A DNA stretch of 64,000 nt, from assembly GCA_009392915.1 (NCBI GenBank), contig CP045477.1, forward strand, positions 416,001-480,000, read 5' to 3'. A program made the translations under genes and the position numbers. Every line of letters starts with the position of its first letter. Positions within the stretch are counted from its first letter, which is position 1. This document shows, in pieces, positions 40,512-56,036 of the stretch. The DNA comes from Candidatus Forterrea multitransposorum CG_2015-17_Forterrea_25_41 (lineage in GTDB: Archaea; Iainarchaeota; Iainarchaeia; Iainarchaeales; CSSED10-239). The notes below the pieces were generated by a model. It worked only from the letters and a program-made list of their open reading frames with translations. It was not told the origin of the DNA and did no database searches.

Positions 40512-40783
40512 TGTACAGGCACTTACTGGTCGAAAAACAGTTCAAGAAAACATTTAGCTTTATAAAATCTCAAGTCCGCAACCCAAAAAGCATCAAACAC
40601 TTAGGATACTGCTGCTTCCTTCCGGATCTGACAGGGTTTACTAAGATATTCGATCTTAATGGACGAACCGTCAGCAATTTTACAAAGAGTGCCTCCTTGC
40701 TTATTTGCCTTCCAGTAATAATCACTCCGGCTATGTAGATTTCCGGTAACAGGAGACTACAACCCCCCCAGCTAGCCTATACA
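40512..40783 (-). ncRNA. Signal recognition particle RNA (archaeal 7S-type)
   Basis: This is a GC-rich island in AT-rich DNA. The minus strand contains GUCAGAUCCGGAAGGAAGCAGCAG (about 40609-40633), the universal helix-8 motif (compare E. coli 4.5S GGUCCGGAAGGAAGCAGCC). The 5' Alu-like segment is GGCUAGCUGGGGGGUUGUAGUCUCCUGUUACCGGAAA. Terminal pairing UGUAUAGGC/GCCUGUACA closes the molecule. The ends are approximate. Confidence 0.8.
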
Positions 40784-40941
40784 AGTAATTAAAGTGACGA
40801 TACATTTAAAAACACTTTGGACAATATATATAACATAAAAATAATGTATTAATTCACTAAAAAACAAAAAAAGGTGTGTTAATACCTTATATACAAAAAA
40901 GAAGCTTAATTTAAGCTTATTTTAATAATGAGGTGGATTGG

Positions 40942-42054
40942 ATGAGATCAATTGTATCAAATGCAGTAGAGCACAAATCTGCAGCTGCTGAGAACATAAA
41001 CGTTAAAGACAGCGAATTTGCAGCCCCAAAGATCATGGTTATGGGAATTGGTGGTGCAGGAAATAATTCTGTAAATAGAATCTGTGCAATGGGTGTTGCA
41101 GGTGCACAACTTGTAGCTATTAACACAGATAGACAACACTTAGGTATCATTTCAGATGATATAACAAAATTATTAATTGGAAAATCAGTAACTAATGGTT
41201 TAGGTGCTGGTGCATACCCTGAAATAGGTGCAAAAGCAGCAGAAGTTTCAAAAGCAGCATTAGAAGAAATCTTAGATGGTGTTGACATGCTTTTCATTAC
41301 TGCCGGAATGGGTGGTGGAACAGGAACAGGTGCAGCTCCAGTAGTAGCTCAAATAGCAAAACAACAAGGTGCAATTGTAATGTGTATAGTAACTTATCCT
41401 TTCGCACTTGAAAGAGCACGTTTAATTAAAGCAGAAGAAGGAATTGACCTTTTAAAAGATATTTGTGACACAGTTGTTGTTATTGATAACAATAGACTTG
41501 TTGAATTAGTTCCAAACCTTCCAATGCAAGATGCTTTCAGAGTAGCTGATGAAGTAATTGCAAGAACAGTAAGAGGAATTACAGAAACAATTACTCAACC
41601 TTCATTAATCAACCTTGATTACGCAGACATAAGAACAGTAATGGGTGGTAAAGGATTATCAGTTATCGCTGTTGGTGAATCACAATCTGTTAACAAAGTT
41701 GAAGAAGTTGTTGAAGACACATTAAAGAATGCTCTTTTAGATGTTGATATAACTGGTGCAACAGGTTGTTTAATCCATATTACAGGTGGAACTGAATTAA
41801 CTTTAGGTGAAGCTAACGCTGTTGGTGAAATGTTAACTGACCAAACAGATTCAAATGCAGCTGTTATCTGGGGTGCAAGAATTGATCCTACTTTTGAGAA
41901 TAAAATAGAAGTAATTGCTATTTTCACAGGTGTAAAATCACCATTCATCAAAGGAAGTAAAATGTTTAGAGGAAAAGATTCACCACAAAGCTACAACGGA
42001 AGTGGCAAAGGTGGAAGATCTTACGATGACAACTATGGATTAGATGTTTTATAA
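40942..42054 (+). CDS. ftsZ: Cell division protein FtsZ
   Basis: GIGGAGNNSVNR and the tubulin signature GMGGGTGTGAAPVVA are present. I prefer the ATG at 40942, preceded by GAGGTGGA, over the track's GTG at 40933. Confidence 0.95.
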   Translation: MRSIVSNAVEHKSAAAENINVKDSEFAAPKIMVMGIGGAGNNSVNRICAMGVAGAQLVAINTDRQHLGIISDDITKLLIGKSVTNGLGAGAYPEIGAKAAEVSKAALEEILDGVDMLFITAGMGGGTGTGAAPVVAQIAKQQGAIVMCIVTYPFALERARLIKAEEGIDLLKDICDTVVVIDNNRLVELVPNLPMQDAFRVADEVIARTVRGITETITQPSLINLDYADIRTVMGGKGLSVIAVGESQSVNKVEEVVEDTLKNALLDVDITGATGCLIHITGGTELTLGEANAVGEMLTDQTDSNAAVIWGARIDPTFENKIEVIAIFTGVKSPFIKGSKMFRGKDSPQSYNGSGKGGRSYDDNYGLDVL

Positions 42055-42211: not shown

Positions 42212-44125
42212 ATGAAAATAAAAATAACATTTCCAGATGGTTCCATAAAAGAAATTGACTCTGGAAAAACAGCAGAAGAAGTAATAAGAGAAGAGATCGG
42301 TGAAGGTCTTTTAAACGCAAGCATAGCTGTAAAAATAAATAATGATATTAAAGACTTATCAACTCCAATAACGAACGATTGTGATTTTAAAGTACTTACA
42401 ACAAAAGATATAGAAGCAAAAGAAGTTTTATGGCATAGTTCAGCACATATCTTAGCTTATGCTATAGAAAAAATATATCCAGAAGTAAAACTAACTATTG
42501 GACCTGCTATTGAAAATGGTTTTTACTATGATTTAGATTTAGACACACCAATAACAGAAGAAGACTTTGAAAAAATAGAAAAAGAAGCTGAAAAAATAAT
42601 TTCAGAAAAACTACCTTTCATAAGAAAAGAATTTAGCTATCAAGAAGCAAAAGAAATGTTTAAAGATAACCCTTACAAAATAGAAATGATTGAAGATTTA
42701 GAAAAAGAAAATCAACCAATAACATACTATTCTTTAGGAGACTTTAAAGATCTTTGTAGAGGACCACACTTAAAACATTCAGGAAAGGTAAAAGCTTTTA
42801 AAGTTTTAAAAACATCAGGTGCCTACTGGAGAGCAAATTCTAAAAATAAACAATTAAAAAGAGTATATGGTATTTCTTTCTTTTCAAAAGAAGAAATGAA
42901 AGAATACTTAATAAAACAAGAAGAAATTGCAAAAAGAGATCATAGAAAAATAGGAAGAGAACTTGATCTTTATTCTTTCCAAGAAGAAGCACCAGGTATG
43001 CCTTTCTTCCATGATAAAGGTTCTTTTATCTGGAATAAACTAGTTGAGTTTGTTTCACAGATAATGGAAGATAGAGATTATGAAGTTAATAAAACTCCAT
43101 TAATCCTAAACAGAAGTTTATGGCTTCAATCAGGTCACTGGGATCACTATAAAGAAAACATGTATTTTACAAAAATAGATAACCAAGACTTTGCAGTAAA
43201 ACCAATGAATTGTCCAGGAAACATCTTAATCTATAAAGCACATCAATATTCATATAGAGATCTTCCTATAAGAGCAGGAGAGTTTGGTTTAGTTCATAGA
43301 CACGAACTTTCAGGAGTTCTTTCTGGTCTTTTCAGAGTAAGAGCTTTTACTCAAGATGATGCCCATGTCTTCTGTACTGAAGAACAACTAAAAAATGAAA
43401 TTAAAGATTTAATTGATTTCATGGATGTTGTTTATAAAACATTTAACTTCTCTTACAGCATGGAACTTTCAACAAAACCTGATAAAGCTATGGGTGACCC
43501 TAAGATATGGGAAATGGCAGAAAATACTTTAGAAGAAGTTTTAAAAGAAATGAAAAAAGACTTTAAGATAAACCCTGGTGATGGTGCTTTCTATGGTCCA
43601 AAAATAGATTTCCATTTAACAGATGCTATTGGTAGAAAATGGCAATGTGGAACAATACAACTTGATTTCCAAATGCCTGAAAAGTTTGATCTAACATATG
43701 AAGCTGCAGATAACACTAAAAAAAGACCAATTATGCTTCACAGAGCTGTTTTAGGCTCAGTTGAAAGATTTATGGGTATTTTAGTTGAGCATTTTGCAGG
43801 TAAATTTCCACTTTGGATCTCACCTATGCAAGTAATTATCCTTCCAATAGCTGATAGACATAACGAGTATGCAGAAAACCTAAGACAAGCACTTAAAAAA
43901 GAAGGTTTTAGAGCAAAGATTAACGATAAAGCAGAGACAATGAACAAAAAGATAAGGTCTGCTCAACTTGAGAAAATAAACTATATTTTAGTTATTGGAG
44001 ATAAAGAGCAAGAAAACCAAACAATAAATGTAAGAACAAGAGATGAAAAGATTTTAGGTGAGATGAAATTATCTGACCTTATTGAACAAATGAAACAAGA
44101 AATTTTAAAGAAAGAGATTAAATAG
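42212..44125 (+). CDS. thrS: Threonine--tRNA ligase (full-length, TGS + editing + class II core)
   Basis: It has an N-terminal TGS domain (KITFPDGSIKE) and an editing-domain WHSSAHILA. Class II motifs are HRHELSGVLSGLFRVRAFTQDDAHVF and MLHRAVLGSVERF. An AGGAG motif lies upstream. Confidence 0.95.
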   Translation: MKIKITFPDGSIKEIDSGKTAEEVIREEIGEGLLNASIAVKINNDIKDLSTPITNDCDFKVLTTKDIEAKEVLWHSSAHILAYAIEKIYPEVKLTIGPAIENGFYYDLDLDTPITEEDFEKIEKEAEKIISEKLPFIRKEFSYQEAKEMFKDNPYKIEMIEDLEKENQPITYYSLGDFKDLCRGPHLKHSGKVKAFKVLKTSGAYWRANSKNKQLKRVYGISFFSKEEMKEYLIKQEEIAKRDHRKIGRELDLYSFQEEAPGMPFFHDKGSFIWNKLVEFVSQIMEDRDYEVNKTPLILNRSLWLQSGHWDHYKENMYFTKIDNQDFAVKPMNCPGNILIYKAHQYSYRDLPIRAGEFGLVHRHELSGVLSGLFRVRAFTQDDAHVFCTEEQLKNEIKDLIDFMDVVYKTFNFSYSMELSTKPDKAMGDPKIWEMAENTLEEVLKEMKKDFKINPGDGAFYGPKIDFHLTDAIGRKWQCGTIQLDFQMPEKFDLTYEAADNTKKRPIMLHRAVLGSVERFMGILVEHFAGKFPLWISPMQVIILPIADRHNEYAENLRQALKKEGFRAKINDKAETMNKKIRSAQLEKINYILVIGDKEQENQTINVRTRDEKILGEMKLSDLIEQMKQEILKKEIK

Positions 44126-44181: not shown

Positions 44182-44481
44182 CTATTCTTCAAAATAATAA
44201 TTATTATCATCTTCAAGCTTTATAGCTTTTCCATTTACTAAAGCAGAAGAAATCTTTTTTCTAGCATCAATTAAAAGTCTATGAAAAGTAGGTTGAGAAA
44301 TATTCATTCTTTCAGCACATTCTTTTTGCTCTAAACCTAAAAAATCTTTAAGCCTAATAGCTTCAATTTCAACAAAGCTTAATACTTCTTCTTCAATTTC
44401 TCTTAAAGGTATTCCAGCTGGTTTAAAATAATTAGAGGATGGTTTATGTGAAATATTTCTCATTCTTCTTTTTCTTGGCAT
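44182..44481 (-). CDS. DUF134 (UPF0251) family putative DNA-binding protein
   Basis: MPRKRRMR...YFKPAGIPLREIEEEVLSFVEIEAIRLKDFLGLEQKECAERMNISQPTFHRLL is the characteristic DUF134 sequence. Confidence 0.85.
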   Translation of the reverse strand: MPRKRRMRNISHKPSSNYFKPAGIPLREIEEEVLSFVEIEAIRLKDFLGLEQKECAERMNISQPTFHRLLIDARKKISSALVNGKAIKLEDDNNYYFEE

Positions 44482-44500
44482 ATTTTAAAACCTTTTTTTC

Positions 44501-44836
44501 TTAATGTTTACAAGGAGTATTTAAATCTTTTAAATCAGCTATATTTTCAATTACTTCTTTTAAGAAATTATAATCTCCTGTTTTAAGAATAATATTTTTT
44601 TCTACAAATAAATCAATTGCTTTTTTACCCATACCTTTACTAAAAACTGTATCTATATTATTTTCTAAAATTTGATCTACTGGAGATTTAGAACTATTAT
44701 GATCTAAATAATTTTTAATAATTTTTAATTCTTTTAAAACTGTATCATATATTGCAAAAAAATTACAAGTTCCAAAATGATTGCTTAATTTTGAATCTAA
44801 ATTATTATTATCTTCTAATGAAATTAAAATTTTCAT
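44501..44836 (-). CDS. NifB/NifX-like (dinitrogenase FeMo-cofactor-binding fold) small protein
   Basis: The HFGTCNFFAIYD motif and the ~110-aa size fit this fold. I prefer the MKILISL start at 44836, preceded by GAGGA. Confidence 0.75.
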   Translation of the reverse strand: MKILISLEDNNNLDSKLSNHFGTCNFFAIYDTVLKELKIIKNYLDHNSSKSPVDQILENNIDTVFSKGMGKKAIDLFVEKNIILKTGDYNFLKEVIENIADLKDLNTPCKH

Positions 44837-44932
44837 AAATAAATCCTCTAGTATCATTTAATATTTTTAAAATTAAATATTTAATGAATATATATAAATA
44901 TATAAAGAAAAGAAATAAAAGAACTACTCTTT

Positions 44933-45067
44933 TTAAAGAGTAGCTCTTCTTCTAAGACCCCTTCCTTTTGTTTGAGAAACACTTTCTCTTTCAGGATTGC
45001 ATCTTCCTCTTTTCATTCCAGTCATTGATCCTTTTCCATCAGGACCAGTTCCGTCTTTATTCGGCAT
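44933..45067 (-). CDS. DUF5320-like small protein (44 aa, absent from the ORF track)
   Basis: The reverse strand encodes MPNKDGTGPDGKGSMTGMKRGRCNPERESVSQTKGRGLRRRATL*. The MPxxDGTGPxGxGxMTGxxxGxC start is the remembered DUF5320 signature, and that family commonly sits beside DUF134 and NifX-like genes. Confidence 0.6.
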   Translation of the reverse strand: MPNKDGTGPDGKGSMTGMKRGRCNPERESVSQTKGRGLRRRATL

Positions 45068-45090
45068 ATTAAATTCCTCCTTTTCTTTTA

Positions 45091-45149
45091 TGAATCTATA
45101 TTCATAATCATGTTACGAACAGTTTATAAAGCTATTGAATATATATTCA
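45091..45149. promoter_or_regulatory. Two TGAAT-N4-ATTCA palindromes in the divergent promoter region
   Basis: TGAATCTATATTCA lies at 45091-45104 and the perfect 14-mer TGAATATATATTCA at 45136-45149. They are 45 bp centre to centre, between the DUF5320 operon start (45067, minus) and the 45229 gene (plus). Confidence 0.35.
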
Positions 45150-45228
45150 TTTAAATAAAATACAAATATTTATAAAGATAATTAACAACATTAATTTATT
45201 AACAATAATAAATATAGGTGATATTAAT

Positions 45229-46158
45229 ATGGGATTATTTAAAAGAAAAACACCAGTTGTTCAAGAAAAAAAATCAGAATATGGACCAATTAACAGACTT
45301 GTAAGAAATGCTAAAGCAAAATCACAAGCAAAACAAAAAGCAAGAACACTAAAAGAAGTTGCAGAAATTAAATTTAATAAAATAAAAAGTGCTTTAAGAC
45401 TAAGACCTGCAAAAGTAAAAATAACTTATGAAGTTTTATCTAAAGAATATTCTTCTGCAGAAATTAAAAAAATAGATCAAAAACTTGCAATGCTTGAAAA
45501 AAGAGCAGAAGAAAGTCATAAAAGAATACTTGAACTTAAAGGTAAAACATTAAAAGATAATACAAATATCGAAGTTATTAATAGAAAAAAAATTGCACAA
45601 CAACTTCTTAAAGGAGAAGAAGTTAAAAGTATACCTAAAAGAAACGCAATTAATCCTGAAAGCTTAGAGGCAAATAAAGGAACAAAAGCATCTACTAAAA
45701 CCTTAAAAGAAATTGAAGCAGGAGATAAAAAAGTTTTAAAAACAAGAGAACTTGACAAACATTTTACTTCAGAAAAGAAAAGAGCAATGGTTTCAAAAGA
45801 AATAAGAAAAGAAATTGAGAATGCAAGATTAATAAATAAAGAAATTGCAAGTATTCAATCAATAAAATTTAATGACATTATAAAAAATCAACTAAAATCT
45901 TTTGGAACAATAGCAGAAACTAAACAAGCAAGAGAAGAAATTATTAAATCTCTTTACAATAAATATGAAAAAGGAGCAATTAATTTATCTGGTTTAAGAG
46001 ATTTAATTAAATATTTATCTGTTGAAGTTGAGATTGGTAAAAAAATGAATATTATAAATTCTGTTGAAAATGCAAACACTTATCTTTTAGGAAATGCTCA
46101 ACTTATAAATGAAATAAAAGATATTTCTGAAATAAAAAAGAAATTTAAGTTTTTTTAA
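45229..46158 (+). CDS. Lys/Glu-rich coiled-coil hypothetical protein
   Basis: A 309-aa uninterrupted ORF with heptad-like charged sequence. No motif recognised. Confidence 0.5.
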   Translation: MGLFKRKTPVVQEKKSEYGPINRLVRNAKAKSQAKQKARTLKEVAEIKFNKIKSALRLRPAKVKITYEVLSKEYSSAEIKKIDQKLAMLEKRAEESHKRILELKGKTLKDNTNIEVINRKKIAQQLLKGEEVKSIPKRNAINPESLEANKGTKASTKTLKEIEAGDKKVLKTRELDKHFTSEKKRAMVSKEIRKEIENARLINKEIASIQSIKFNDIIKNQLKSFGTIAETKQAREEIIKSLYNKYEKGAINLSGLRDLIKYLSVEVEIGKKMNIINSVENANTYLLGNAQLINEIKDISEIKKKFKFF

Positions 46159-46164
46159 AAAAAA

Positions 46165-46728
46165 TTAAAGTTTCTTTGAATAAATACCCCAAAGATAATC
46201 TTTTTTATCTTTGTGGGTTCCTATTTTTTTTAAATTAAAAGAAAGATGCTTATTAATTGATCTTTTATTTTTTATTGGACTTTCTAAAATCTCACAAATA
46301 TATAATGAAAAGTCTAAAGACTTTGCATGTTTAAACATCTCTTTATTTAAAGACTCTCCAATTTTTGGAAAACTTCTATTTGAGACTAACTGTTTACCAA
46401 AAAGAACTTTATTTTCTTTTAATAATTTTTCATCAACATCTATTTCTTCTAAAAAACTAGGATTAAGTTTAATATATTTCTTTAAACTATAAGCTAAAAA
46501 ATAACCAACAACTTCTTCTTTATTTTTTGCAACAAAAAGGAAAGTATTTTTACATCTTAAAGATTTTAAAAGATTTTCAATTGAGACTTCATAGACTAAA
46601 AAACCATTATCTGTAACTTCTTTTTTATTTATTTTTAAATTATATTCTAAAAGTTGAGATTTTTGTAAATTATATATTTGTAAAATATCGTTTTTTTTAG
46701 CTTTTGTAATATTTATTTCTGAATTCAT
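46165..46728 (-). CDS. Possible GNAT-like acetyltransferase
   Basis: NDILQIYNL..., LFVAKNKEEVVGYFLAY and the size suggest a GNAT fold. Motif A is weak. Confidence 0.35.
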   Translation of the reverse strand: MNSEINITKAKKNDILQIYNLQKSQLLEYNLKINKKEVTDNGFLVYEVSIENLLKSLRCKNTFLFVAKNKEEVVGYFLAYSLKKYIKLNPSFLEEIDVDEKLLKENKVLFGKQLVSNRSFPKIGESLNKEMFKHAKSLDFSLYICEILESPIKNKRSINKHLSFNLKKIGTHKDKKDYLWGIYSKKL

Positions 46729-53533: not shown

Positions 53534-54280
53534 TTATGGAAGATTAGCTTTCATTGTTAGGAATATAAACATATCAATTATTGGAAATAAAATAACAATT
53601 ATAAAAATAACAGATAAAGGTGTAAAAGATAATTCTAAAAAATTACTACCAACTAATAAAAACATTAAAAACAAAGCAGGAACAATTGCAGAAACAACAA
53701 TATAGATTAAAGATAAAAGACTTAATTTAGTGGAATAATTTTTAATTAAATAATTTTGTTTTTCAATAATACTTGAAGATAATGTTCTTAAAGATTCAGA
53801 TTTATTTAAAGAACCAGTAGATAAAACATCTTCAATCTGATAAAAAACTCTCTTTAAATCTGAGTTTTCAACACCCACAGAAATAAAAGATTCAGAAAGA
53901 GAATAACCTAAGACATTTACTTTATATAAAACTTTTTTAATAATTTGCCCAATTAAAGAAGAATCAACTCTATTTTCTAAAGCAATTTTTAAAGAAATAT
54001 TCTTATCTAAATCATTTGCAAGGTTATTTAAGAAAAAAGGAATTTCTTTATTTATTTGTCTTTGATGATTTTGAAGCTTAATCTTGTATTTAAAAAAAAT
54101 AATAAAAAAGAACATAAAGAAAAACATAATAAATAAATTAAATAAATAACTATAAGATAAACTAATAACCACTGAATCAATTAATAAAAAAATAATTAAA
54201 ATTATTAAATAGAGAATAATAAATAACAAAAAGTTCTTTCTTGTAAATATTTCTTTCTTTAAAAAAATATAATCAATCAT
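53534..54280 (-). CDS. Type II secretion system F-like platform protein (TadB/FlaJ-like, single domain)
   Basis: TM helices flank a helical cytoplasmic domain (FFLNNLANDLDKNISLKIALENR...). It has an 8-nt overlap with the ATPase gene end. Confidence 0.5.
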   Translation of the reverse strand: MIDYIFLKKEIFTRKNFLLFIILYLIILIIFLLIDSVVISLSYSYLFNLFIMFFFMFFFIIFFKYKIKLQNHQRQINKEIPFFLNNLANDLDKNISLKIALENRVDSSLIGQIIKKVLYKVNVLGYSLSESFISVGVENSDLKRVFYQIEDVLSTGSLNKSESLRTLSSSIIEKQNYLIKNYSTKLSLLSLIYIVVSAIVPALFLMFLLVGSNFLELSFTPLSVIFIIVILFPIIDMFIFLTMKANLP

Positions 54281-56036
54281 AATCTTTTCTAATTAATATT
54301 TCATCAATTATTTTTTCTTGTTTCTTATAAACTTTAAGATAATCTTTTTTATTTTTAATATCAAATGCAAATTTTAATTTATCATAGATTTTAATAGAAT
54401 CATTAACTTTAATTAATTTATTTTTATAAATATCAAAATAAAATAAAACATTTAAAGAAATTTTTCCATCTTTATATATAACTTCACAGATTTCAGTAAT
54501 ATTTCTTAAATCAATAGATTTACCTTTTAAATATTTATTATATCTTCTTTGAGTTATAATTAAATCAATTACACCTAAATCAGTTTCTAAAACACCATAT
54601 GACTTAAACCTTAATAGAGCTTCATTAGCACTTTGAGAATGGAAAGTTGTATATGTACCTTTTGCTTGACCACAAAGCATAGATTCAATTAAATATTTTG
54701 ATTCTTCTCTACTTCTAATTTCTCCAATAACAACTCTATCAGGTCTCATTCTTAAAGTGTTTATAACTAAACTTTCAAGATTAATTCCAATCTCAGGATT
54801 TACAAGTGTAAAAACTTTATGTTTATGAGGGATATTTATCTCTCTAACTTCTTCAACAACAACAAATCTTTCATCTAAAGGAACAAAAGAAAGTAAAGTG
54901 TTTAAAGTGGTTGTTTTTCCAGAACCAGTATTTCCAACAACAATTATATTTGAATCTGTTAAAAAACAAAGACTTAAAAAAACTAAAGCTTCTTTTGAAA
55001 CTGTATTAAAAGAGATTAAATCTTTAATTGTAAATGGTTTTTGAGAAAATTTTCTAATAGTAATACAAGCACTTTCAGTTATTGGGTTTATAACTGCATT
55101 AAGTCTTGAATTATCTTTAAGATAAGTATCTAAAATTGGATTTTTTAAAGTAATATATTTATTTGAGTGCCAAGAAAGTTTATTAATTAAATCCCTTATT
55201 ACTTGAGAAGAAGAATAAGAAAGATTACTTTCAAGCCAACCATAATATTTATGATAAACATAAAGTGATTTTCCTTCTCCAATAATTACAATTTCTTCAA
55301 GATAAGGATCTTTTAATATTTCTGTTAATGGTCCATAATTATAAAGATTATTAAAAGAAATATCTATAATATAATTAAATTGATCTTCTTCAAGCTCTAT
55401 GTTATTAACATAACAATAATCAATTAATTCTTTTTCAATATCTTCTTTTATTCTTTCAGTTGAAACTTTTTCAATATATTCTGTTCTAGTTTTATAAGAA
55501 TCTAAAATAAAGTTAATAACTTCAATTTCTTGGATTGAAAGATTTTGATGAAAAATTAAATATCTTTTAGAAGAATCTTTCATTTCAAATACATTTTTAG
55601 AAATATTTCTTAAGATTTCTTTTTTTAAATCTAAAACAACATAACCTAAATATCTATTAAGAATATATTTCTTTTCATCATCAGTAAACTCATCCATTAT
55701 CTTTAATAAAGCAGGATTATTTTTATAACAAAACATAGAAAAAGAACTTAAAGCACATAAATCACATTTATAAGCTTTATTTTTTCTTAAGATAATAGCA
55801 TTATGTGGACAAGCTTTAAGACACTCACCACACCCATCACATTTTTCAGAATCAATTGCTACAACGCCTTTAGAAACATAATAAATAGCATTTTTTTTAC
55901 AAGCTTTAATACAAGGAGCATCTTTACAATTGGTACAATTGAATACACAAGAAGAGTCTTTTTTTGTAAAATTGTAAGGACAATTTAGAAAAACATCTGT
56001 ATCTTTGATAAAATCTTCTGTTTTCTTAAGATACAT
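54273..56036 (-). CDS. Type II/IV secretion (FlaI/VirB11/TadA-type) ATPase with an N-terminal 2x[4Fe-4S] ferredoxin-like domain
   Basis: The ATPase core has Walker A GNTGSGKTTTLN, FVVVEEVREI, RMRPDRVVIGEIRSREE and GTYTTFHSQSA. The N-terminal ~100 aa carries CTNCKDAPCIKAC, CDGCGECLKACPHNAI and YKCDLC. Confidence 0.85.
   Translation of the reverse strand: MYLKKTEDFIKDTDVFLNCPYNFTKKDSSCVFNCTNCKDAPCIKACKKNAIYYVSKGVVAIDSEKCDGCGECLKACPHNAIILRKNKAYKCDLCALSSFSMFCYKNNPALLKIMDEFTDDEKKYILNRYLGYVVLDLKKEILRNISKNVFEMKDSSKRYLIFHQNLSIQEIEVINFILDSYKTRTEYIEKVSTERIKEDIEKELIDYCYVNNIELEEDQFNYIIDISFNNLYNYGPLTEILKDPYLEEIVIIGEGKSLYVYHKYYGWLESNLSYSSSQVIRDLINKLSWHSNKYITLKNPILDTYLKDNSRLNAVINPITESACITIRKFSQKPFTIKDLISFNTVSKEALVFLSLCFLTDSNIIVVGNTGSGKTTTLNTLLSFVPLDERFVVVEEVREINIPHKHKVFTLVNPEIGINLESLVINTLRMRPDRVVIGEIRSREESKYLIESMLCGQAKGTYTTFHSQSANEALLRFKSYGVLETDLGVIDLIITQRRYNKYLKGKSIDLRNITEICEVIYKDGKISLNVLFYFDIYKNKLIKVNDSIKIYDKLKFAFDIKNKKDYLKVYKKQEKIIDEILIRKDYD

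Follow-up and report, generated by a model that had tools for sequence, protein, structure and literature searches.

A near-invariant palindrome upstream of DUF5320-DUF134 operons as the probable operator of DUF134 proteins

Introduction

Which protein, if any, reads a palindrome that stands twice ahead of a small archaeal operon? The operon lies in a stretch of 64,000 nucleotides of Candidatus Forterrea multitransposorum (contig CP045477.1, positions 416,001 to 480,000), referred to throughout as the window, and encodes on the minus strand a small DUF5320 protein, a NifX-like protein and a DUF134 (UPF0251) helix-turn-helix (HTH) protein. The palindrome, TGAAT-N4-ATTCA, was proposed in a preliminary description of the locus to be an operator of the DUF134 protein. 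No functional study of DUF134/UPF0251, of DUF5320 or of the 14-mer was found in the literature, and the question is approached here by comparison with 160 DUF134 loci from genomes and metagenomes (52-65% identity) and 8 close relatives, 973 kb in total. The scanned DNA comprises the DUF134 neighbourhoods (+/- 4 kb) and the 64-kb window; motif counts cover 162 related loci, and gene counts cover 163 DUF134 genes (the 162 loci and the window). In the close relatives L165-L168, DUF134 is 80% identical to the window protein. Taken as a whole, the comparison indicates that the palindromes are quite probably DUF134 operators mediating autorepression.

The palindromes in the window

The main features of the operon and its control region, in coordinates of the window, are the following.

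44182-44481, minus strand: DUF134/UPF0251 helix-turn-helix protein (PF02001), 99 aa, recognition helix ISQPTFHR
44501-44836, minus strand: NifX-like protein with a Nitro_FeMo-Co domain (PF02579), 111 aa
44917-44950, minus strand: terminator-like hairpin (15 pairs) with a T-rich tail, overlapping the DUF5320 stop codon
44933-45067, minus strand: DUF5320 small protein (PF17253), 44 aa, short form beginning MPNKDGTGPDGKGSMTGMKRGRC
45076-45080, minus strand: Shine-Dalgarno sequence GGAGG, 8 nt ahead of the DUF5320 ATG
45088-45107: predicted proximal operator, core TGAATATAGATTCA on the minus strand (45091-45104) with TTA...TAA flanks
45123-45130, minus strand: TATA-box-like TTTATAAA between both operators; block CTTTAWAAAC kept in relatives
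45136-45149: predicted distal operator, perfect 14-bp palindrome TGAATATATATTCA
45169-45176: second TTTATAAA, self-complementary, 19 nt upstream of the distal operator
44885-44898: half-site-like TGAATATATATAAA with 2 mismatches, between the DUF5320 and NifX-like genes

Both palindromes are found where the preliminary description had placed them, upstream of the operon at 45091-45104 and 45136-45149, the second of them perfect. The proximal site reads TGAATCTATATTCA and, with its flanks, forms a 20-bp palindrome with one central mismatch. TGAAT-N4-ATTCA has 2 matches in the 64 kb, both upstream of the operon, with 0.42 expected and two or more present in 6 of 100 shuffles, and any inverted repeat with 5-nt arms (at least one G/C in the arm) occurs twice within 160 bp in 3 cases, compared with 1.7 +/- 1.3 in simulated sequence. 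Statistics drawn from the window by itself are weak, and the case for an operator rests on the comparison of loci. No further credible site was found in the window with TGAATATATATTCA at up to 3 mismatches or with TGAA-N6-TTCA; the half-site-like sequence at 44885-44898, present in L161 and absent from L166/168, is probably not functional.

The window has a GC content of about 24% and contains an archaeal signal recognition particle (SRP) RNA (40512-40783, minus strand; Rfam), which marks its host as an archaeon. The control region is therefore to be read with a promoter composed of a TFB recognition element (BRE) and TATA box, and not with a sigma-70 promoter; a sigma-70 promoter scan of the region, uninformative for an archaeon, gave nothing above shuffles. 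In archaea the centre of the TATA box lies about 26-27 nt ahead of the transcription start. Applied to TTTATAAA at 45123-45130, this rule puts the predicted start near 45100, within the proximal operator. The end of the distal operator lies 4-5 nt ahead of CTTTATAAAC, and this operator abuts the BRE side of the TATA box. The two 45-bp TATA-operator units of the window are identical at 35 of 48 aligned positions, which suggests that they arose by tandem duplication, and the second TTTATAAA could serve either a second tandem promoter-operator unit or the divergent gene at 45229.

Conservation of the palindrome upstream of DUF134 operons

Among the closest relatives, L161 and L165-L168 keep the distal 14-mer unchanged (100%), despite an upstream flank that cannot be aligned. 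The upstream neighbour also differs, the 309-aa orphan gene of the window being kept in L161 and replaced by an acetyltransferase in L167/168, and the palindrome therefore goes with the DUF5320 operon and not with the divergent gene. The proximal site persists in L166-168, there with one mismatch other than that of the window, and has been lost from L164/165. In L165, ahead of the conserved operator (positions 1-90 of that locus), about eight tandem copies of a TATA-like TTTATAATG/TTTATAATT unit replace the sequence of the window.

Phylogenetic footprinting over the wider set, the check that the preliminary description had proposed, gives a consistent picture. In the 162 loci TGAAT-N4-ATTCA occurs 182 times upstream of DUF134 versus 2 times downstream in nearly equal amounts of sequence, a density of 0.418 versus 0.0044 sites per kb (about 95-fold), and the motif is kept upstream in 117 of the 134 DUF134 loci that have at least 600 nt of upstream sequence. 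The exact 14-mer TGAATATATATTCA accounts for 108 sites in related loci, and alignment of 170 non-identical sites widens the consensus to the 20-bp palindrome TTA-TGAATATATATTCA-TAA. Loci with a site reach 61% GC and belong to both prokaryotic domains: the archaeal ones include Woese-, Pace-, Micr- and Aenigmarchaeota (DPANN), Methanosarcinales and Thermoplasmatota, and the bacterial ones are labelled Deltaproteobacteria, Syntrophorhabdus and Eubacteriales. The gene directly behind the site is DUF5320 at 75 sites or more and DUF134 at 34.

Covariation of the recognition helix and the operator

DUF134 is the sole DNA-binding-type protein present at every locus, and its recognition helix occurs in two forms, SQPTF and SRPTF, each common across the family. 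When the proteins are clustered at 90% identity, 101 SQPTF clusters have a TGAAT/ATTCA site and 5 do not, while the corresponding figures for SRPTF are 0 and 10 (Fisher 3.7e-11, a value uncorrected for phylogeny). The SRPTF loci carry a variant, TTA-TGRAC-ATAW-GTYCA-TAA, with 7 exact sites in 79 kb and not one in 883 kb from SQPTF loci; at 10 of the 12 SRPTF loci a copy with at most 1 mismatch lies within 81 nt of the gene. A de novo search for 5-mer inverted repeats in these loci was too weak; the variant was seen by reading the upstream sequences and was then quantified. The SRPTF class is found mostly in Chloroflexota and in Firmicutes related to Thermoanaerobacter and Moorella. The pattern suggests a specificity switch in which one residue of the protein (Q63R) is matched by one base of the operator. 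Footprinting and helix covariation together support the proposal that the palindrome is the DUF134 operator, and it is from them, from the position of the sites and from the fold of the protein that binding and repression are inferred.

Promoter anatomy across the family

The archaeal loci conform to the consensus cgAAAnnTTTAAATA-N5/6-operator, and a TATA-like 8-mer starts 13-15 nt ahead of the site at 99 of 151 first sites. From this position and the archaeal rule given above, transcription would begin 2-3 nt after the 14-mer. Eighteen DUF134-proximal sites show the arrangement TATA-N5-site followed by an ATG, mostly 2 nt on (1-7 nt overall), that has no Shine-Dalgarno sequence. An ATG so placed implies a leaderless mRNA starting just after the operator, and many archaeal DUF134 genes thus appear to be expressed as leaderless mRNA from their own operator-controlled promoter inside the DUF5320-DUF134 spacer. 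Genes of this type, in which the site ends 1-2 nt before the ATG, are seen in L004, L007, L011, L042, L084, L098, L102, L112, L117 and others. The DUF5320 genes, unlike the leaderless DUF134 genes, have GGAGG-type leaders.

By this reckoning the archaeal operator would span about -16 to -3, an untranscribed stretch at the point where polymerase loading has to take place. It is often accompanied by a second, weaker one 24 bp further down (22-25 bp in 19 of 25 pairs). The operator-TATA-operator layout of the window, with the second site about 18 nt past the TATA block, is the rarer type and recurs in L001, L105 and L166-168. In a bacterial subclass, the variant operator directly follows a TTGACA-17-TATAAT promoter at several SRPTF loci.

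Structure of DUF134 and its closest known relatives

A search of solved structures found none for DUF134. The AlphaFold model of the window protein (predicted local distance difference test score 82) features a three-helix HTH at residues 36-83 framed by short strands at 31-35 and 86-90, and this HTH superposes at 0.5-1.0 A on sigma-70 region 4, on the archaeal regulator EnfR and on the DNA-binding domain (DBD) of Bacillus subtilis DeoR. The last of these (PDB 7bhy, 8r7y) is the best solved match, with a profile hit to DeoR residues 9-47 (E 7e-5) and, by Foldseek, 45% identity over 40 residues at a root-mean-square deviation of 0.7 A.

The left half-operator of B. subtilis DeoR is ATTGAACAAAATTTCAAT, i.e. 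TGAA-N6-TTCA (PMC11229326), the same core and spacing as in the DUF134 palindrome. DeoR residue R34 interacts with base T12 and R39 with G4, although the 3.7 A structure does not, as the paper itself says, allow contacts to be observed with high confidence (PMC11229326). Once the numbering of the DeoR construct was checked (GIDPF plus T1-L313, 318 residues), R34, the Arg of ISRPT, was found to correspond to the Q/R-variable residue 63 of DUF134, and T12 falls in the alignment on operator position 10/5, the one that covaries; the invariant R68 is the counterpart of R39, and the invariant G of TGAA that of G4. The DeoR DBDs dimerise through a β-strand that follows the HTH (PMC11229326), and the conserved NGKAIKIE strand of DUF134 (86-90 in the model) sits at the same place. 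The DeoR DBD binds as a dimer, and DeoR is a repressor with an operator overlapping its promoter, as proposed here for DUF134. Unlike DUF134, it requires a tetramer and a composite 39-bp operator and regulates nucleoside catabolism. The window protein shares the DeoR-type N-terminal HTH of the SorC/DeoR family and has neither the C-terminal effector domain nor the tetramerisation: at 99 aa versus 313 for DeoR it lacks the SorC sugar-phosphate effector domain and shows no further Pfam domain, and it possesses an extra conserved N-terminal segment (MPRxRR...YFKPxG) and a longer helix before the strand.

EnfR (TON_1525; PDB 8hno), a Tfx-family protein of Thermococcus onnurineus, offers an archaeal example of a region-4-type HTH, 33% identical over 48 residues. 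This dimeric repressor binds a 36-bp pseudo-palindrome, shields its target promoter from -44 to +3 and has no effector-binding domain, an anti-repressor partner being proposed by its authors (PMC10570040). EnfR differs in its operator and in bearing a C-terminal 'note-head' domain (TFX_C), for which DUF134 has no Pfam match; the window protein falls in PF02001, and the similarity to 8hno is limited to the 48 HTH residues. The likeness to sigma-70 and extracytoplasmic function (ECF) sigma factors is likewise confined to the HTH core, which superposes at 0.5-1.0 A also on sigmaE region 4 bound to -35 DNA. A sigma-70 factor combines region 2 with region 4. The 99-aa DUF134 protein lacks region 2, with no association with RNA polymerase implied; it is a presumed dimer on a palindrome, and it occurs in archaea.

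A model of autorepression and its alternatives

DUF134, with its region-4-type HTH, most likely binds TTA-TGAATATATATTCA-TAA as a dimer, and from a position on or beside the core promoter it would repress the DUF5320, NifX-like and DUF134 genes, a case of negative autoregulation. In the window, one operator abuts the BRE side of the TATA box and the other would cover the predicted start site. Most archaeal relatives have a lone operator, which occupies the interval from TATA to start, and a repressor bound there would block the recruitment of RNA polymerase. The archaeal repressors MDR1, LrpA and Phr bind between TATA and the transcription start; they belong to unrelated families (DtxR, Lrp and winged HTH, respectively) and recognise different operators, yet their operators hold the same position as the DUF134 sites and the mechanism, a block of polymerase recruitment after TBP/TFB binding, is likely the same. 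The location of the operator upstream of the regulator's own gene, kept across the loci and overlapping the core promoter, is that of an autoregulated repressor.

Several observations weigh against autorepression by DUF134. The proximal site is lost from so close a relative as L164/165, and the layout of the window is atypical, with 45-bp spacing and a TATA box 18-19 nt before each site, not 5-6. The start site in the window is a prediction, and a distal site upstream of the TATA box would fit activation too. Few independent lineages stand behind the covariation, and common descent exaggerates the Fisher result. DUF5320 is found at the loci nearly as often as DUF134 and may be part of the DNA-binding species, while a scan of DUF134 neighbourhoods and the window may leave room for another binder. 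Finally, any ligand of the NifX-like protein is putative, the short DUF134 protein shows no obvious sensing residues, and no binding, footprint or expression data for any DUF134 protein were found in the literature.

The low GC content invites the alternative that the palindromes are chance or basal AT-rich promoter sequence of the TATA-like ATATAT kind and have no specific binder. The core does contain ATATATAT, and the unimpressive window statistics leave intact the concern, raised in the preliminary description, that the motif occurs at chance frequency in such DNA; the related loci dispose of it. More than 100 loci repeat the 14-mer letter for letter, among them bacterial ones of 55-61% GC, a separate canonical BRE/TATA adjoins the palindrome, and the motif is absent from the remaining 63.8 kb of the window. 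With the upstream density, the 117 of 134 loci and the 20-bp consensus, the comparative data effectively refute a chance origin, which retains a negligible probability. A role for the palindrome as RNA and not as DNA, in a 5'-leader hairpin that serves for instance as translational operator or stability element, is very unlikely. Any palindrome can fold as a hairpin, the paired change of TGAAT to TGAAC and ATTCA to GTTCA would be compensatory in RNA, and the second sites of tandem promoters, probably including the proximal site of the window, lie in transcribed leader. The first operators, however, lie between TATA and start and would be untranscribed, an ATG follows 2 nt on at leaderless promoters, and the distal site of the window stands upstream of a conserved TATA box. 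The folds have little stability (-1.5 and -4.3 kcal/mol), the stem keeps one sequence and does not covary freely, the 'loop' ATAT and the flanks are two-fold symmetric and conserved, and the control region matches no Rfam family either at gathering scores or at E <= 10. The hairpin was rejected on the position of the site and the weak folding.

The two remaining alternatives accept a DNA operator and differ on its reader or its effect. The reader might be DUF5320, a complex of DUF134 with DUF5320 or with the NifX-like protein, or an unlinked global regulator of the Rex or CRP-FNR type. DUF5320 is nearly always co-located, basic and Gly/Arg-rich, sampling was confined to DUF134 gene neighbourhoods, and Rex boxes also contain TGAA...TTCA. 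The Rex spacing, on the other hand, is TGAA-N4-TTCA, the homologous DeoR domain binds the very TGAA-N6-TTCA core, and the operator class tracks a single residue of the DUF134 recognition helix; the sites are found essentially upstream of these operons, with none elsewhere in the window, and another reader is accordingly improbable. It is a little less probable again that DUF134 binds the sites and mainly activates, or acts as a dual regulator, with the distal site of the window recruiting TFB/TBP. Sites upstream of the BRE are typical of archaeal activators, and such a placement is seen in the window, where the distal operator lies just ahead of CTTTATAAAC, and in L125 and L139, where a site likewise directly precedes BRE/TATA. 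Yet no promoter shows the upstream arrangement by itself, and in the dominant layout the best site falls between TATA and start, or over the bacterial -10/+1, which is a repressor position. Autorepression by DUF134 remains the explanation that best accommodates these data.

The three genes of the operon

All three family assignments of the preliminary description hold. The DUF134 protein matches PF02001 over the full domain (80.9 bits against a gathering score of 27, E 1.1e-22; residues 3-90 on profile positions 6-91 of 98) and contains all invariant columns of a 39-sequence alignment (YFKPxG, E..E..RLKD and SQPTF.R). The Pfam family Sigma70_r4_2 also matches it above cut-off, and matches of the region-4 type are confined to residues 38-81.

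The unannotated 44-aa ORF had been described as DUF5320-like from its N-terminus, and it scores above gathering against PF17253 (34.8 bits versus 27, E 3.9e-8), covering only profile positions 1-39 of 99; the protein is a short form lacking the C-terminal coiled-coil part. Short forms (30-59 aa), with MPNKDGTGPxGKGxxTGxxxGxC and a basic tail, are encoded in many DPANN-type loci. Orthologues of 44-47 aa with 79-98% identity occupy the syntenic loci, the GGAGG is placed alike before DUF5320 in nearly all related loci, and of 16 nucleotide differences between the window gene and that of L166, 9 are at third codon positions. A database search with the 44-aa protein gave 3 matches only, E-values being subject to database size, and membership is shown by Pfam and the local loci. 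The Shine-Dalgarno sequence, the syntenic orthologues and the Pfam match mark the ORF as a genuine DUF5320 gene.

The ORF at 44501-44857 (minus strand) matches PF02579 Nitro_FeMo-Co (48.5 bits, gathering 26.3, E 1.1e-12), in keeping with the NifB/NifX fold assigned to it. Gene calls in relatives are 111-112 aa long and begin MKI, and the gene therefore probably starts at 44836 (MKILISL, 111 aa) and not at 44857. NifX proper, a FeMo-co carrier of nitrogenase, is associated with nif-type genes, and no such neighbours were seen in the window ORF list or in the related loci.

Gene order and strand agree with the single three-gene operon first described. The hairpin at the DUF5320 stop codon (44917-44950; minimum free energy -18.8 kcal/mol, z -3.2), whose stem and T-run are largely kept in L161 and L166/168, adds a qualification: read-through to the NifX-like and DUF134 genes may be attenuated, or there may be two transcription units. 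The statement that the trio recurs in anaerobes is to be narrowed. The recurring core is the pair DUF5320 followed by DUF134, found with about 100 of the 163 DUF134 genes; the exact order of the window is a minority (11 plus a few), the NifX-like gene being optional or fused.

Fusions, operon partners and a possible signal

In 12 of the 163 cases, DUF134 and Nitro_FeMo-Co domains are fused in one protein of 206-253 aa (Pfam-verified). The fusions come from Deltaproteobacteria, Syntrophorhabdus, one Methanosarcinales locus and one labelled Parachlamydiales, and all have a TGAAT operator upstream.

Fusion loci: L031, L047, L050, L057, L070, L074, L076, L080, L131, L133, L138, L142

By the Rosetta-stone argument, such natural fusions suggest that the free NifX-like protein of the window is a sensor or effector-binding partner of DUF134. 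At lower confidence than for autorepression, the NifX-like protein would be a sensor partner, presumably binding a metal-sulfur cofactor or cluster, the regulon would serve metal or thiol homeostasis, and DUF5320, the first gene behind the operator, would be the chief product under regulation or else would modulate the repressor. The sensor and metal hypothesis is tentative. Many DUF134 proteins (about 150-166 aa) have a Cys-rich CxxC...CxxC tail (e.g. L021, L136) or a Chloroflexota-type C-terminal extension, and these are possible alternative sensor modules.

The partners encoded in operator-headed clusters include a ZIP transporter, an EncFtn-like ferritin, a split ArsP-like permease, DsbD-like/thioredoxin and DsrE-like proteins and PEMT, and a metal or thiol-redox theme for the regulon is plausible. 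Directly behind the site stand EncFtn-like ferritin genes (PF22277, 77-84 aa) in L005, L009, L039, L086, L094, L113 and L128, and ZIP transporter genes behind TGAAT-N4-ATTCA in L002 and L009, which hints at an iron- or zinc-related regulon.

Mrp/MinD 4Fe-4S ATPases flank DUF134 in 29 examined loci. In agreement with the preliminary description, the operon of the window stands apart from them: tblastn of the window with 29 ATPases from related loci detected none, the only, weak match falling in the 587-aa ORF at 54273-56036 (minus strand; 36-46% identity over 48-88 residues). Judged by its length and the N-terminal position of the similarity, this ORF is probably ABCE1-like and outside the DUF134 system. 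A comparable association is known from the ORP clusters of Desulfovibrio, which are anaerobe-specific, bring Nitro_FeMo-Co proteins together with 4Fe-4S ATPases of the Mrp/NBP35 type and have been connected with the handling of Fe-S and metal clusters (PMC6345978, PMC3897727). The orp operons of D. vulgaris are under the control of sigma-54, OrpR and integration host factor (IHF), not DUF134 (PMC6345978, PMC3897727), and the window has no Mrp/NBP35 ATPase beside its Nitro_FeMo-Co protein.

A broader and more doubtful proposition is that DUF134, the NifX-like protein and DUF5320 constitute an ancient transcription switch, common to Archaea and Bacteria, whose signal is a metal-sulfur cofactor or cluster. 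The NifX-like module, free in the window and fused in Deltaproteobacteria, would gain or lose a cluster and thereby toggle DUF134 on its near-invariant 20-bp operator, and DUF5320 would behave towards the region-4-type HTH as an anti-sigma factor does, or would be a cluster carrier under regulation. Anti-sigma proteins that mask region 4 provide a precedent for such a modulator, by analogy only.

Host and neighbouring genes

The locus has its closest copies in metagenome bins labelled 'Candidatus ainarchaeum sp.' by their submitters (L161, GCA_028700905.1), and the genus Candidatus Iainarchaeum is placed in the DPANN-type kingdom Nanobdellati (NCBI taxonomy). An FtsZ-like gene (40933-42054, plus strand) adjoins the DUF134 locus, and a gene for a 637-aa threonyl-tRNA synthetase (42212-44125, plus strand), syntenic in L162-L168, converges on DUF134. 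On the other side, neither the divergent 309-aa Lys-rich protein (45229-46158, plus strand) nor the neighbouring 187-aa protein (46165-46728, minus strand) has a Pfam match at E <= 0.01.

Implications

An autoregulated HTH repressor with a palindromic operator is an ordinary kind of system. What is new here is the near-invariance of the operator across Archaea and Bacteria, the one-residue, one-base switch and the link to a candidate NifX-like sensor domain. In public data, DUF134/UPF0251 amounts to about 4,760 clusters at 50% identity, and an operator can now be assigned to this large, uncharacterised family. The predictions that follow are the operator TTA-TGAATATATATTCA-TAA, a second class TGRAC/GTYCA associated with Q63R, a mechanism of repression for archaeal and bacterial promoters and a candidate sensor domain, and they provide an experimental handle on three protein families, namely DUF134, DUF5320 and the stand-alone NifX-like proteins of anaerobes. 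The ZIP, EncFtn-like ferritin, DsbD/thioredoxin and Mrp/NBP35 partners suggest a connection with metal or Fe-S homeostasis among anaerobes and DPANN archaea, for which hardly any regulation has been described. A repressor-operator pair kept almost exactly across both prokaryotic domains is uncommon and would serve as a model for how one geometry works on two basal machineries; if the proposed metal-sulfur switch is true, such a pair has been kept nearly letter for letter on two different machineries of basal transcription.

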